From assembly GCA_951406725.2 (NCBI GenBank), contig OX597831.1:3534001-3598000 (forward strand): a DNA stretch of 64,000 nt, given 5' to 3'. The notes under the pieces are model-generated. The model was not told the DNA's origin and made no database searches. It saw only the letters and a list, made by a program, of their open reading frames with translations. The translations under genes and the position numbers were made by a program. Below are positions 2,709-23,214 of this stretch, piece after piece (positions within the stretch are counted from its first letter, which is position 1; each line of letters begins with the position of its first letter). This DNA comes from Octopus vulgaris (taxonomy: Eukaryota).

Positions 2709-4215
2709 CAATAATAATAATGAATAAACATCAACAACAATAACAACAAAACATAACACCATGCCACATTTGAATATTAACAAGATTTGATAAAAAATGG
2801 TATGGAAGTCTTGTAAGAAAGGAAGAATTGTTCACACACTGTTGGATGTTTCTAAAGATAACAGAATGCATATAAAATGTCAAGAATGAAATCCCCATAA
2901 AGGAATAAATATACAAATCTAAATAAATAAATGAATTATAAAAAATATATATAATGAATAAGTAAAGAGATAGATTTTTAAAATTTATATAACTGGAGGT
3001 AGGTGTAATGGTTGTAAATGTGTAAAATAGTGGCACTGAGCTCTTGGAGAGAATGGAGAGGATGGAGAGAATGGCACCGACTGGGAACATGAGTTGAAGA
3101 GGGTAGGTAAGAAGTCAGAGAGTGGGAAATGGTTAATGGAAGGATAAAGCAGGATGAGATCCATTTTAAAAAAAGCACCTACAATTGTGTGTGTGTGTGT
3201 GTGTGTGTGTGCATGTGTGTGTGCATGTGCGTGTGCATGTGTGTGTGTGCATGTGTGTGTGAGTATATATAAACACAGGGAGAGAGGGAGAGAGATATAG
3301 ATACATATACACACACATATATATACATACCATACATACACACATACATATACATTTATATGTATATACATATGTATACGTATATTTGCACATACAAACA
3401 TATACACACATACGTACACACATACATGCATACATATATACATGCAACATCCATACATACATGCACACATGCATACACACATACATGAACACATACATAT
3501 ATCATATATACACATACATACATACACATAGATACATACACATAGATACATATACACACATGCATACAACATACATACACATACATATGCACACATACAT
3601 ACATATGCACACATACATACATATATATATGCACACACATGCATGCATACATGCTGTCATCAACGACAGGCATGTAGACATAGAGGATACTCAAACATGT
3701 ATTTTTGAACATTTCCTTCCGCATTTATGCCAAGGTAATCAATCCTAATTGAATTTCATTCCTCATTATAAATAAAAGAAACATCTTTTCCTCACCCACT
3801 TCGAGTCATCCGGGTTGGATTGTACAAAATGCTTTACACTACATGGAAATTCTCTAATTCCATCATAACAATACCACTATTAATGGTACCAAGATTATAA
3901 TGTGTAAATAGAACAGGAGAAATATGTAAGACTTTATTGAAGTTCACTAATCCCTTTTGTTATGTGTGTGTGTATATGTATGTATATATATATGTATATA
4001 TGTATGTATATATATATTTGAGTAGTTGAATGAATTATCTTATTAAGGATAATTCGAATTAACCGATACCTGGGTAGCAAATTCACATCAGAAAAAACAC
4101 AGTTGAAGCTACGTGCCTAGGGCATAGATTACGTGTCTTCGTGCGGAAATTTGTATGTTTATTTTTAAAATATAAATATATGAAAGAATGGAGCTGAACG
4201 ACGAATTAACAAAAT

Positions 4216-4312
4216 TCCTTTATTTTCGACATATGTTTCGAAGGCTGCATATTCCTAATTGCGAAGGAATAAGGAGTACATTATGCCGCTTTCTCATCAG
4301 GAAAAGCAAGGA
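4216..4312 (-). ncRNA. Type I hammerhead ribozyme (minus strand)
   Basis: Minus strand reads UCCUUGCUUUUC-CUGAUGA-GAA...UUC-GAAA-C-AUAU-G-UC-GAAAAUAAAGGA: complete catalytic core, stem I, long stem II and minimal stem III. Confidence 0.85.
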
Positions 4313-4390
4313 ACTTATGTCAACATCAAAATGCACAAAAAACTTTTAGCTGACCGCTCTCAAGGAGCCCATTTTGATGTCGACATAAGT

Positions 4391-4487
4391 TCCTTGATTT
4401 TCCTGATGAGAAATCTGCATAATGTACTCCTTATTCCTTCGGAATTAGGAATATGCAGCCTTCGAAACATATGTCGAGAATAAAGGA
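4391..4487 (+). ncRNA. Type I hammerhead ribozyme (plus strand)
   Basis: Stem I 4391-4402 pairs with 4476-4487. CTGATGA 4403-4409, stem II 4410-4463, GAAA 4464-4467, C-ATAT-G stem III, GUC triplet with predicted cleavage after 4475. Confidence 0.88.
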
Positions 4488-4685
4488 TATTTGTTAACTA
4501 GTCGTTCAACTCCATTACTTTCATATACTTATAATTTTAAAATAAACATACAAATTTCCGCACGAAGACACGTAGTCTAAGCCCTAGTGACGTAGCTTCA
4601 ACCATGTTCTTTCTGATGTGAATTTGCTACCCAGGTATCGGTTATCTTTCGAATTATCCTTAATAAGATAATTCATTCAATTACT

Positions 4686-4748
<63 letters not shown>

Positions 4749-4860
4749 TTAAAATAATAAGGGTGAAAAATTGAATATTAATTAGATTAATATGAATTTA
4801 AAACCAGTGGTCTAGCATATAGAAAAATCTGAAGATTCAGAAAAATTGTGTTACATACTT

Positions 4861-5036
4861 ATAAGAGGGATGACCACTAAGTGGACATCCATATGCTAGA
4901 AGTCGATCCCTTATAGTCTTATCACTAAGAAAGGAATGTTCTCAAGAAAAATTTAGCAAATGCCAGAATGTAAGCACACAGGGGGGAGGGGCGACTTCTA
5001 GCATATGGATGTCCACTTAGTGGTCATCCCTCTTAT
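4861..5036. repeat. Inverted repeat, 45-bp perfect arms, inside a (TA)n-flanked insert
   Basis: 4861-4905 is the reverse complement of 4992-5036. The enclosing insert (~4750-5036) is bounded by (TA)n. Confidence 0.9.
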
Positions 5037-5049
5037 ATGTATACATATG

Positions 5050-5099
<50 letters not shown>

Positions 5100-5113
5100 C
5101 ACGCACACACATA

Positions 5114-5586
5114 AGGGAATTAAAAAAGGCAATGAAGCTGAGCATTGCATACTAACAACACCAAAGGAAAAAATTAATGAACACACAATACCATTTATTA
5201 ATACGCATAATCCTGGGGTAACCAGCATCTTTCATGCCATAAAATCAAACCTGAAAGATCTGATTGATAAAAACCCCTTACAAAACAGTAGACGCCAACC
5301 AAAAAATCTCAAAAAATACCTCATAGGAGCAAAATTCACATCAGAGAATGAATTAGAATTCTCTGTAAAAGAATGTGAAGACAGCAGATGTGGAACATGC
5401 AACAACAACAACAACTTTAAATACTTAGAAAATGGTTCCCACTTAAAATTCAAGAGCAGATTCTCGTTCAAAAGTAAATGCATACATGAACTGCAAGATT
5501 GCAGAATCTCATATACTGTATTACTTGCCCCAACTGCAAGAAAGATTGCATTGGCAAGACAAACAATACCCTCTACCAATGTGTAA
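5114..5586 (+). pseudogene. Penelope-like element ORF remnant (thumb/linker, Cys motif, start of GIY-YIG)
   Basis: IPFINTHNP...RRQPKNLKKYLIGAKF...CEDSRCGTC, then after a frameshift NLIYCITCPNCKKDCIGKT. Confidence 0.8.
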
Positions 5587-5799
5587 GAATACACACACAC
5601 ACACACACACACAGAAAATAAAAACAAAAAGCATATGCATATATAACAGCTTCTTTGTTTTTCAAAATATTAACATGTACACGCAGACATAAAATATATG
5701 AATGATGATATGTTTTGTCTGTTGAGAAATATTCAATCAATTAAGATGTAATTTCTTTTTGTGTCAATTTTTCGTCCTGCAGAAATTTTTTTCGCCCTC

Positions 5800-6253
5800 A
5801 GAGACTACTAACAAATGCGAAGCTTTACAAAACAACCACGAAACCAACGGTTGAAAAATGTGGATGCCCAAGCTGTGGAACCTGCCCCAACCTGATTGAT
5901 GGCTTGGATTTCCTTTTCAAAGAAGGACAGAGGTTCACAATCAAAACTAGCTTCACTTGTGCCTCTGAGAACCTAATTTATGTAATAACTTGCTCGGGTT
6001 GCAGATACCACTATATTGGACAAACGAGTATGACCTTGAGAAAGAGAACCACTCTACATAAAGAGTAAATTCGTTTCCCGCAATACAGACATATTCCTCT
6101 CAGTGAACATATAGAAAAATGTGCAGATAACATCAAACCAAATTTCACAGTCTTCCCTTTCTACCAGTGCAAAGACAATCTCTCAAATAGAACGTTTAAA
6201 TAAAGAAATTTTTTAATTGAAAAATACAAAACACGTCTTAATGTGCACGAATA
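5800..6253 (+). pseudogene. Penelope-like element GIY-YIG endonuclease remnant (Neptune-type Cys linker)
   Basis: KCGCPSCGTCPNL...FTCASENLIYVITCSGCRYHYIGQTSMTLRKRTTLHKE*IRFPQ...LSEHIEKC...RLNKEIFLIEKYKTRLN, with one internal stop and a frameshift. Confidence 0.88.
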
Positions 6254-6731: not shown

Positions 6732-6734
<3 letters not shown>

Positions 6735-6898
6735 TATAGTATATTGTGAAATTTGATTTAGAATTGCTAAATTGAGTTTCTCCCTGTAAGTTTGGAATTA
6801 TATTCCCTACTATTATGATATATATAATATAATTCCAAACTTACAGGGAAAAATTCAATTTAGCAATTCTAAATCAAATTTCACAATATACTATATAT
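6732..6898. repeat. Inverted repeat, ~72-bp arms, in (TA)n
   Basis: 6732-6804 is the reverse complement of 6826-6898 with about 2 mismatches. Confidence 0.9.
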
Positions 6899-7234
6899 GT
6901 AACTATCTATTAGTTATTGTTTTTGTACTTTATTGATTTATATATTAAGGTCTTTATAGTATATGTTTTCTATATGGTGTGAATAACATCTTCCATTACT
7001 GAATTGTTTAAGGGAAAGAAAATTAAAAACATTTACCATCTAATTTAGTTCCTAGACCATGGTTTCTGACTTATTTCAGTAAAAAAAGATTTACTGAGGC
7101 CAGTCTTCATCAGAGAATTTATCCCTAATTAGTGCTTTGAGTTGTGTACTGCTCTTTCTAGCACAAGGCTTTCCTACGATGGAAGCCTCTTAATGTGTTT
7201 TAATGTACATGATATTTTATATGAATAATATATA

Positions 7235-7786: not shown

Positions 7787-7853
7787 CCTACTGATGAAGA
7801 CTGGCCTCAGTAAATCTTTTTTTACTGAAATAAGTCAGAAACCATGGTCTAGG
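7787..7853 (+). ncRNA. Type I hammerhead ribozyme (variant stem II base)
   Basis: CCTA-CTGATGA-A-GACT..TCAGTAAA/TTTACTGA..AGTC-A-GAAA-C-CATG-G-TC-TAGG, predicted cleavage after 7849. Confidence 0.75.
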
Positions 7854-8002
7854 AACTAAATTAGATGGTAAATGTTTTTAATTTTCTTTCCCTTCGAGAA
7901 TTTATCCCTAATTAGTGGTTTGAGTTGTTTACTGCTCTTTCTAGTGCAAGGCTTTCCTATGATGGAAGCCTCTTAATGTGTTTTAATATACATGATATTT
8001 TA

Positions 8003-13649: not shown

Positions 13650-15505
13650 GCTATTCAAATTCTATTGAAGATGATTTAACTTTTCAAAAGGTTTTAGTAT
13701 TTATAAAATAACTACACTTTAATATCTGGGTGTAGCTGTGTGGTAAATGAGGTTGTTTTCAAAGCATGGAGTTCTGAGTTCGATTCCATTGCTTTCTGTC
13801 ACGGGAAGGTGTTTTCTACTTCTGTAGTTCCAAGTTGATTATAATGTCTTGTGAAGGGAATTTGGTAAGTGGATATGGTACAGAAGCTTGTCATGACACA
13901 GGTGTGGCTGTGTAGGAGCAAGTGAGGCTTTGGGGTCAACAGTTTGCTTCCCAATCCTGAAACCTTGGGAAAGTATTTTCTGCTATAGCTTTAATATCTA
14001 GGCGTAGCTGTGTGGTAAATGAGGTTGCTTTGAAAGCATGGAGTTCTGGGTTCAATTCCATTGCTTTCTATCTTGGGAAGTGGGAAGGCGTTTTCTACTA
14101 CTGTAGTTCCAAGTTGATTATAATGTCTTATGAAGGGAATTTGGTAAGTGGATATGGTACAGAAGCTTGTCATGACACAGGTGTGGCTGCGTAGGAGCAA
14201 GTGAGGCTGTGGGGTTAACAGTTTGCTTCCCAATCCTGAAACCATGGGCAAGTATTTTCTGCTACAGCTTTAATATCTAGGTGTAGCTGTGTGGTAAATG
14301 AGGTTGTTTTGAAAGCATGGAGTTCTGAGTTCGATTCCATTGCTTTCTATCTTGGGAAGGTGTTTTCTACTTCTGTAGTTCCAAGTTGATTATAATGTCC
14401 TGTGAAGGGAATTTGGTAATTGGATATGGTACAGAAGCTTGTCATGACACAGGTGTGGCTGTGTAGGAGCAAGTGAGGCTGTGGGGTCAACAGTTTGCTT
14501 CCCAATCCTGAAACCTTGGGAAAGTATTTTCTGCTATAGCTTTAATATCTAGGCGTAGCTGTGTGGTAAATGAGGTTGCTTTGAAAGCCTGGAGTTCTGG
14601 GTTCGATTCCATTGCTTTCTATCTTGGGAAGGTGTTTTCTACTACTGTAGTTCCAAGTTGATTATAATGTCCTGTGAAGGGAATTTGGTAAGTGGATATG
14701 GTACAGAAGCTTGTCATGACACAGGTGTGGCTGTGTAGGTGCAAGTGAGGCTGTGGGGTTAACAGTTTGCTTCCCAATCCTGAAACCTTGGGCAAGTATT
14801 TTCTGCTATAGCTTTAATATCTAGGTGTAGCTGTGGGTCATCATCATCATCATCTTCATCATTGTTTAATGCCTGCTTTCCATGCTGGCATGGGTTGGAT
14901 GGTTTGACTGAGGACTGGCGAACCAGATGGCTGCACCAGGCTCCAATCTGATCTGGCAGAGTTTCTACAGCTGGATGCCCTTCCTAATGCCAACCACTCT
15001 GAGAATGTAGCGGGTGCTTTTATATGCCACCGGCACTAGGGCCAGTCAGGCGGTACTGGTGACAGCCATGCTAAAATGGTGTTTTTTACGTGCCACCTGC
15101 GCTATTCAAAATCTATTGAAGATGATTTAACTTTTCAAAAGGTTTTAGTATTTATAAAATAACTACACTTTAATATCTAGGTGTAGCTGTGTGGTAAATG
15201 AGGTTGTTTTGAAAGCATGGAGTTCTGAGTTCAATTCCATTGCTTTCTATCGTGGGGAGGTGTTTTCTACTACTGTAGTTCCAAGTTGATTATAATGTCT
15301 TTTGAAGGGAATTTGGTAAGTGGATATGGTACAGAAGCTTGTCATGACACAGGTGTGACCGTGTAGGTGCAAGTGAGGCTGTGGGGTTAAGAGTTTGCTT
15401 TCCAGTCACATGGCTTCAGGTTCAGTCCTGAAACCATGGGCAAGTATTTTCTGCTATAGCTTCAGGTTGACCAAAGCTTTGTGAGAGGGTTTGGCTGATG
15501 GAAAC
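13650..15505 (+). repeat. 272-bp tandem array built from two decayed family A SINE heads
   Basis: Unit starts at 13721, 13993, 14272, 14544, 14816 (partial) and 15172, with spacing 272/279/272/272. Confidence 0.92.
14839..15100 (-). mobile_element. RTE-clade LINE 3' UTR/tail (family R)
   Basis: Reverse complement of GTGGTTGGCATTAGGAAGGGCATCCAGCTGTAGAAAC...CCAACCCATGCCAGCATGGAAA(GAT)n. The same tail follows RTE ORF sequence at 29922-30535. Confidence 0.8.
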
Positions 15506-22926: not shown

Positions 22927-23092
22927 ACGTATGCCATTGGTTTTATCTCGTATCCAAGAATTTAGCTTCTTCTTTGCTGAACATTTCCTTTATGGTGATG
23001 GCGTTGATGATTCTGTAGACCAATTCTTGCATAGAAGAGTCAATGGCATTGACTACATGGCAATGTTGGTGGCAGTCGAGATTGATTTTGTT

Positions 23093-23185
23093 ACACTGAT
23101 TCTCATCCAATCACCGATGTTAAGCAATGTTGAGCCTAGCTAGTTCTTAGATGGTGACCACTTGGAAAGCCTAGGTGCTGTAAGC
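23093..23185 (+). pseudogene. 5S rRNA pseudogene, 5'-truncated
   Basis: ACACTGATTCTCATCCAATCACCGATGTTAAGCAATGTTGAGCCTAGCTAGTTCTTAGATGGTGACCACTTGGAAAGCCTAGGTGCTGTAAGC aligns with the 3' ~95 nt of metazoan 5S rRNA. Many differences are CpG-type transitions. Confidence 0.8.
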
Positions 23186-23214
23186 ACCACTGACATTTTT
23201 TTCTTTTTTCTTTT

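Follow-up and report, generated by a model that had tools for sequence, protein, structure and literature searches.

A head-to-head pair of hammerhead-bearing Penelope-like element ends in Octopus vulgaris, likely built from two subfamily templates

The window analysed here is a 64,000-nucleotide stretch of the Octopus vulgaris genome, positions 3,534,001-3,598,000 of contig OX597831.1. Two inverted arms lie in it between TA-rich microsatellites, joined head to head, and each arm carries a type I hammerhead motif on its own strand. The features of the locus, with sequence-based family and subfamily assignments, are as follows.

3969-4017, no strand: (TA)n/(TATG)n flank, a target-type microsatellite at the 3' end of the left arm
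4018-4372, minus strand: left arm, pseudo-LTR plus tail, the 3' end of a Hydra-like Penelope-like element (PLE); a mosaic with a subfamily L body and subfamily r patches
4136-4144, minus strand: r-type patch in the left-arm tail (sites 4144, 4137 and 4136)
4216-4312, minus strand: type I hammerhead motif, subfamily L (CUGAUGA 4300-4294, GAAA 4239-4236, predicted cut after 4228)
4350-4363, minus strand: r-type 5' tip of the left arm (five sites: 4363, 4360, 4355, 4354 and 4350, one of them common to L2)
4370-4372, no strand: 3-nt overlap (microhomology) of the arm alignments at the head-to-head junction
4370-4688, plus strand: right arm, pseudo-LTR plus tail, the 3' end of the same PLE family, pure subfamily r
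4391-4487, plus strand: type I hammerhead motif, subfamily r (CUGAUGA 4403-4409, GAAA 4464-4467, predicted cut after 4475)
4689-4748, no strand: (TA)n flank at the 3' end of the right arm

When the reverse complement of 4018-4334 was aligned with 4370-4689, 294 of 320 columns were identical, with 23 substitutions and three gap columns, and the outer ends of both arms enter (TA)n. The two inverted arms within (TA)n described by a first-pass annotation of this DNA are therefore real. The spacer it placed between them (4335-4369) is not one, being further 5' sequence of the left arm, which runs on until it overlaps the right. A whole-window inverted-repeat search was dominated by microsatellites, and the arm pair was absent among the 25 longest repeats listed. 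Inspected by eye, the open reading frames of positions 1-24000 comprise repeats and retroelement pieces with no obvious host exon. Contig sets from four sequencing runs gave only short repeat pieces when compared with the locus, none of the matches listed crossing the junction; positions 4112-4134 were covered in one run and in none of the other three, and these sets are uninformative on presence or expression. A search of sequencing runs listed no RNA run containing the locus.

Several other repeats were seen in the window. Short inverted-repeat elements lie at 4855-5042 and 6732-6898, the latter an almost perfect palindrome between TA runs, and a tandem array of a 272-bp unit (4.1 copies, 93% identical) occupies 13717-14835. 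At 23068-23186 on the plus strand there is a lone, diverged 5S rRNA match above the Rfam gathering score (46.4 bits), beside a 184-bp tandem repeat, which is either a pseudogene or a 5S-derived repeat.

Hammerheads were sought with a type I descriptor of our own, comprising the core CUGANGA / GAAA / UH and helices I-III. It matches both arms, with helices obtained from constrained folds, so that the type I motif annotated on each strand is confirmed at this level. In the right arm, 4391-4402 pairs with 4476-4487 as helix I, a long helix II extends over 4410-4463 and helix III is a palindrome at 4467-4474. The descriptor gave one further match in the 64 kb, at 7791 in another family; among 20 block shuffles it gave no match in 18 and one match in each of two. 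Of the two kinds of motif search proposed in the first-pass annotation, the descriptor finds the motif on both strands, whereas the Rfam models match neither: the scan returned no hammerhead at the gathering score or at E<=10, only sub-threshold miRNA-type hairpins. We read this miss as a consequence of the 54-nt helix II and the minimal helix III, which the Rfam models would not accommodate.

The further match at 7791 belongs to a second, unrelated hammerhead-bearing repeat family, present as an inverted pair (7002-7113 on the minus strand and 7791-7902 on the plus strand, arms 97% identical) with a palindromic helix III. The plus-strand copy is a complete type I motif with a predicted cut after 7849, and the minus-strand copy is cut off at the core and lacks helix I. 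This family has 1224 candidates genome-wide, with further opposite-strand neighbours. A direct repeat (94%) is formed by 7113-7219 and 7896-8002.

Folding was modelled with nearest-neighbour predictions, which ignore tertiary contacts and proteins. The 8-nt palindrome of helix III is predicted to form 2 bp as a monomer and 8 bp (-8.4 kcal/mol) as a dimer, and the active fold of the monomer receives a predicted weight of 0.009 in the right arm and 2e-5 in the left. For the two read-through directions the full palindrome is predicted to form a rod with an MFE of -466 and -481 kcal/mol, inside which forcing the active fold would cost +109 and +104 kcal/mol. These predictions agree with the earlier suggestion that a transcript from either direction would bury its ribozyme in a rod. 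If read through, the palindrome would give roughly 320 bp of dsRNA on which ADAR or Dicer could plausibly act; the same holds for the other 88 pairs of its kind described below. In two divergent relatives (L026 and L124, at 76-79% identity) CUGANGA, GAAA and the helix III palindrome are retained, and helix II shows a two-sided change (n=2, by eye).

Searching the 2.8-Gb genome returned 2544 and 2875 candidate copies for the two arms; identity among those scored (40 per arm) was 98-99% for the right arm and 95-98% for the left. Longer copies continue into an ORF with a reverse transcriptase (RT) and, at its C-terminus, a GIY-YIG-type endonuclease (EN), and in partial tandems this ORF starts ~50 nt beyond the point where the window arms end. 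The ORF pieces are 713 and 555 aa long, with RT and EN motifs read by eye. Pfam recognised neither the RT nor the EN of the family, and the ORF has 19 homologues at 35-48% identity, two of which are labelled 'GATA zinc finger domain-containing protein 14-like' by NCBI and are probably mis-annotated PLE ORFs. Long Asn-rich stretches separate the RT from the endonuclease in the family ORF (L132:2717-4855, L122-L135), and an internally deleted inverted copy at L101:6159-6932 has its RT joined in frame to the endonuclease half.

The family has the hallmarks of Penelope-like elements, namely a pseudo-LTR with a hammerhead, partial tandems, an inverted 5' copy and an optional tail. In a sample of 173 segments at least 85% identical, which is biased to full-length matches, 103 stop where the tail does, two internal sites account for 34 and 30, and six stop elsewhere; 167 of the 173 thus stop at three fixed sites, and a TA run follows 147. 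The three end sites and the tail fit the internal RT starts and tail described in the available text of PMC11167929. Homology shows each arm to be a 5'-truncated 3' end, with pseudo-LTR and tail, from a protein-coding PLE that is high-copy and targets (TA)n. The first-pass annotation was thus right to see pseudo-LTR hammerheads of a Penelope-like element in inverted arrangement, family membership being assigned here by sequence. It had also pointed to GIY-YIG remnants nearby. At ~5110-6240 on the plus strand there are indeed two such remnants, in partial tandem and with Cys-rich linkers, and one piece gives a sub-threshold Pfam GIY-YIG match (E 0.017); neither tblastn (E<=10) nor blastn finds a match between them and the arm family, and they were rejected as the parent. 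We take these remnants to be Neptune/Nematis-like.

A reading of the arms as one template that has diverged finds no support: at diagnostic columns they are members of two subfamilies, and their divergence is not decay. The right arm is r-type at 24 of 24 diagnostic columns, its own changes being three substitutions and a 1-nt insertion, and none of the 24 columns lies within the hammerhead core. The left arm is L-type at 13 sites from 4322 to 4170, and again at 4129, 4115, 4095, 4059 and 4025 and at a 2-nt indel, and is interrupted by the r-type tip and tail patch listed above. A single r-type site at 4109 is ambiguous, the same state being found in 2 of 41 L copies. The r tip sits beyond the start of the right arm, where it has no counterpart, and therefore did not arise by conversion from that arm. 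None of the right arm's private alleles is found in the r patches, so the right arm is unproven as their donor.

Compared with two outgroup copies, the left arm holds L-derived states at 4306, 4287, 4261 and 4115 and r-derived states at 4350, 4136 and 4109. Both of its mosaic haplotypes (the tip, and 4112-4145) occur once in the genome, and no other L copy among about 65 segments has such patches. By its alleles, the left arm is a genome-unique recombinant mosaic. It contains two changes beyond the r alleles, against about five expected (P 0.1). In copies picked by pattern, the difference from the subfamily's commonest letters is 1.66% for L1 (13 segments), 1.87% for L2 (17) and 1.36% for r (32). 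The L2 copies carry a 20-nt tail deletion.

Two simpler accounts of the left arm were set aside. A simple intermediate subfamily is disfavoured by the presence of derived alleles of both lineages and by the unique haplotypes. A subfamily between r and L does exist, with its own haplotype (L094 and L131), and its pattern is another one. A-to-I editing was rejected as the origin of the patches, as each change is an r allele and several are not A-to-G.

Head-to-head pairs were searched genome-wide with exact 14+14-base patterns and a gap of 20-200, so that the counts are lower bounds. There are at least 89 tight pairs, comprising 37 r/r loci (38 rows, two overlapping), 50 L/L and 2 mixed. The second mixed match (L061) is an L/L pair with one point change, which leaves the window locus as the only mixed pair among the 89; if arms paired at random, about 49% of pairs would be mixed. 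Typing at all sites covered the leading 15 matches each of r/r and L/L. In the remaining 57 of 87 same-type pairs each arm was typed at a single site, and one of these, counted as L/L (L094), has arms that are both of the intermediate subfamily. Under the typing rule (r, L1 or L2), 29 of the 30 fully typed pairs are same-subfamily, and the last (L092), in which one arm is truncated, looks like L2/L2 by eye. A single tail is found in 28 of these 30 pairs, two tails in one and none in one, whereas both arms of the window locus have a full tail. The arms of the typed pairs differ at 131 of 5369 sites (2.4%), compared with 7.3% at the window locus, and in 13 of the 30 pairs a minor allele is common to both arms (mean 1.6, maximum 6, in 2000 shuffles). 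Given the same-type pairs, the low arm divergence and the common minor alleles, we conclude that paired arms normally share one source, or are homogenised afterwards. Typed in this way, one source is the normal state and the window locus a rare exception with two. Its closest structural twin is an r/r palindrome of about 700 bp with both full tails (L065, G000:C1:166315277-166318447).

In the genome-wide search, which the first-pass annotation had proposed, palindromes of this family thus recur. The junction sequences listed for the pairs vary from locus to locus, so the palindrome is not mobile as a unit. Schistosoma PLEs are reported to have hammerhead pairs on opposite strands, 100-700 bp apart (PMC4209133), and PLEs are described as often including an inverted, 5'-truncated copy (PMC8557442), in the text available of each. 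The palindrome is already known in kind: it is the inverted 5' end of a Penelope-like insertion, a routine product of integration. An ambisense hammerhead pair by itself therefore carries little weight, and the useful part of the locus is what it says of mechanism.

One alternative reading is that the pair is maintained as a functional or mobile ambisense ribozyme unit, be it a self-silenced ribozyme or something retrozyme-like. Both cores are intact despite the divergence of the arms, as the first-pass annotation emphasised, and the core and helix covariation are kept in the relatives at 76-79% identity. Yet with 23-26 differences in about 320 positions a 13-nt core would be intact by chance with P 0.33-0.38, which makes the observation unremarkable and bears out that annotation's own caution that selection is not shown. 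Among copies, change affects 6 of 1045 core cells, 0.99% of helix II and 0.8-1.6% of the flanks, the flank values being inflated by subfamily structure. Core conservation in the family fits selection on the source elements, and nothing points to selection on the window locus. Against a maintained unit stand also the lack of a second copy of the configuration in the genome, the lack of a head-to-tail array at the locus, and the palindromic helix III, which is predicted to need a second same-sense copy that an inverted pair cannot supply in cis. The arms, moreover, are truncated from a protein-coding element, their junctions vary and the mixed configuration occurs once, which speaks against the non-autonomous retrozyme-like or ambisense mobile unit suggested earlier. 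We regard a unit maintained as such as extremely improbable.

The locus is instead very probably a head-to-head pair of 5'-truncated PLE tail ends, likely an inert by-product of integration with its ribozymes predicted to be locked in a hairpin, and two templates are likely to have built it. We propose that the element's endonuclease/RT would open a (TA)n site, that cDNA synthesis would be primed by both DNA ends from start sites internal to the element, and that the two cDNAs would then be joined at a short overlap. The model draws on a PLE protein which, according to the available text of PMC11167929, cleaves and extends both strands, begins reverse transcription internally and, by prediction, forms a dimer. 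In the usual case the arms would copy one source and the tail would be on one arm only. At the window locus the right arm would come from subfamily r and the left from L, switching to r at the 5' tip, and a short r-to-L conversion inside the palindrome would have followed.

As to the exact route, our tentative first choice, held at well under even chances, is one integration using two RNAs, each primed at the tail site, with a final switch to r. In a fuller form, to which we give somewhat less credence, a dimeric RT/endonuclease would have primed the two ends of the (TA)n break using RNAs from two subfamilies that were active together, with a template switch before joining. Close behind the one-integration route comes the possibility, itself doubtful, that an older L copy received a young r element at its 5' end; the r tip would stem from priming or resolution of that element's second cDNA on the homologous L DNA, and the r patches would be residues of heteroduplex repair or of conversion at a later time. 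Two tails and the r tip follow directly from such an insertion, L is slightly older on average than r (1.66% against 1.36%), and (TA)n is found at or near the 5' end of several copies (L004, L007 and L026). The left arm, however, does not look older, with its two unexplained changes set against the right arm's three substitutions and one insertion (P about 0.1). Subfamily ages overlap (L1 against r) and do not decide between the routes, and to account for 4144-4136 the single integration and the insertion onto L would each require, in addition, heteroduplex repair or a short conversion at a later stage.

A different order of events would have an r/r palindrome break through cruciform fragility and its left arm be mostly overwritten by ectopic conversion from an L copy, with r residues left at the tip and tail. 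One patchy conversion would cover all the r residues, and a two-tail r/r palindrome does exist (L065), but pairs with two tails are rare (1 of 30), and from a genomic L donor one would expect about 1.7% private changes, few of which are present; we consider this improbable. Palindromes within repeats are error-prone in assembly, and both mosaic haplotypes are unique in the assembly, so the mosaic, though not the palindrome, might be an assembly or polishing artefact of mis-mapped repeat reads. This we judge very unlikely: unlike those of a fold-back artefact, the arms fall cleanly into two subfamilies and have private changes, the right arm offers no template for the r tip, and the L segments surveyed contain no other copy with such patches. 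The remaining probability goes to an unsampled recombinant source element for the mosaic left arm.

The two-subfamily, two-tail, mosaic state of the window locus is rare and mechanistically informative, and we found no description of it, nor of two-template or chimeric PLE inversions in general, in the literature searched, which lay outside the subscription journals; a search for octopus hammerheads of the same scope returned nothing on point. How PLEs come by their tandem and inverted structures is listed as an open question in the available text of PMC8557442. If two-RNA integration is true, subfamily-typed inverted pairs would be a natural read-out of how PLE inverted ends are built. Tallying such mixed exceptions across the genome would distinguish among one-RNA, two-RNA and insertion-onto-paralogue models with no need for the bench.

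An ambisense viroid-like RNA is a replicating circle with active ribozymes in both polarities; at the window locus the two motifs complement each other within a single chromosomal palindrome. Like the locus, animal non-LTR retrozymes (bioRxiv 10.64898/2026.07.22.740005) are non-coding, PLE-derived and equipped with a type I hammerhead, but as described in the available text they are head-to-tail tandem arrays that spread as units, while the window locus is an inverted pair whose junction occurs once. Head-to-tail units, each with a hammerhead, are absent from the locus, which has no tandem array.

The metazoan PLE hammerheads of Cervera and De la Pena (2014, PMC4209133) have the same type I motif in the pseudo-LTR, with the G10.1-C11.1 pair, the same palindromic helix III and predicted action as a dimer, and opposite-strand pairs are reported among them as well. 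The window motif differs in its much longer helix II (54 nt, multi-bulged) and extended helix I, and the arms are typed here by subfamily, which is not done in the available text of that paper.

Among PLEs, the arm family resembles the Hydra clade of C-terminal EN+ elements, such as Hydra-1_Obim (Craig et al. 2021, PMC8557442). It has in common with the clade, as far as the available text describes it, the DKT motif, YRDD, a hammerhead, (TA)n targets and, at the C-terminus, a GIY-YIG endonuclease that lacks CCHH but has CxxC before a conserved E, and its RT blocks match the Hydra alignment of the supplement by eye. At the place of the clade's RWK it reads RWL. It departs from the clade on both linker and length, in having an Asn-rich linker in place of CxCX5C and about 3.6-3.8 kb where the clade generally has <3 kb; its sequence and hammerhead differ from those of Hydra-1_Obim. 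With RWL for RWK and no CxCX5C linker, and with RT blocks aligned by eye, we call the family Hydra-like without assigning it to the clade. It may be new; a motif search of the PMC8557442 supplement did not find it, a weak negative given that long table entries there are incomplete.

The Penelopes of Adineta vaga and the PAc element (PMC3846280, PMC11167929) have, in the available texts, the same head-to-head inverted pLTR, a tail on one arm and fixed internal 3' ends; Asn-rich inserts are also described in the A. vaga ORFs, like the stretches in the arm family. The tail here is about 135-150 nt long compared with 30-40 and there are three end sites, and the window locus stands apart from both in having two tails and two subfamilies.
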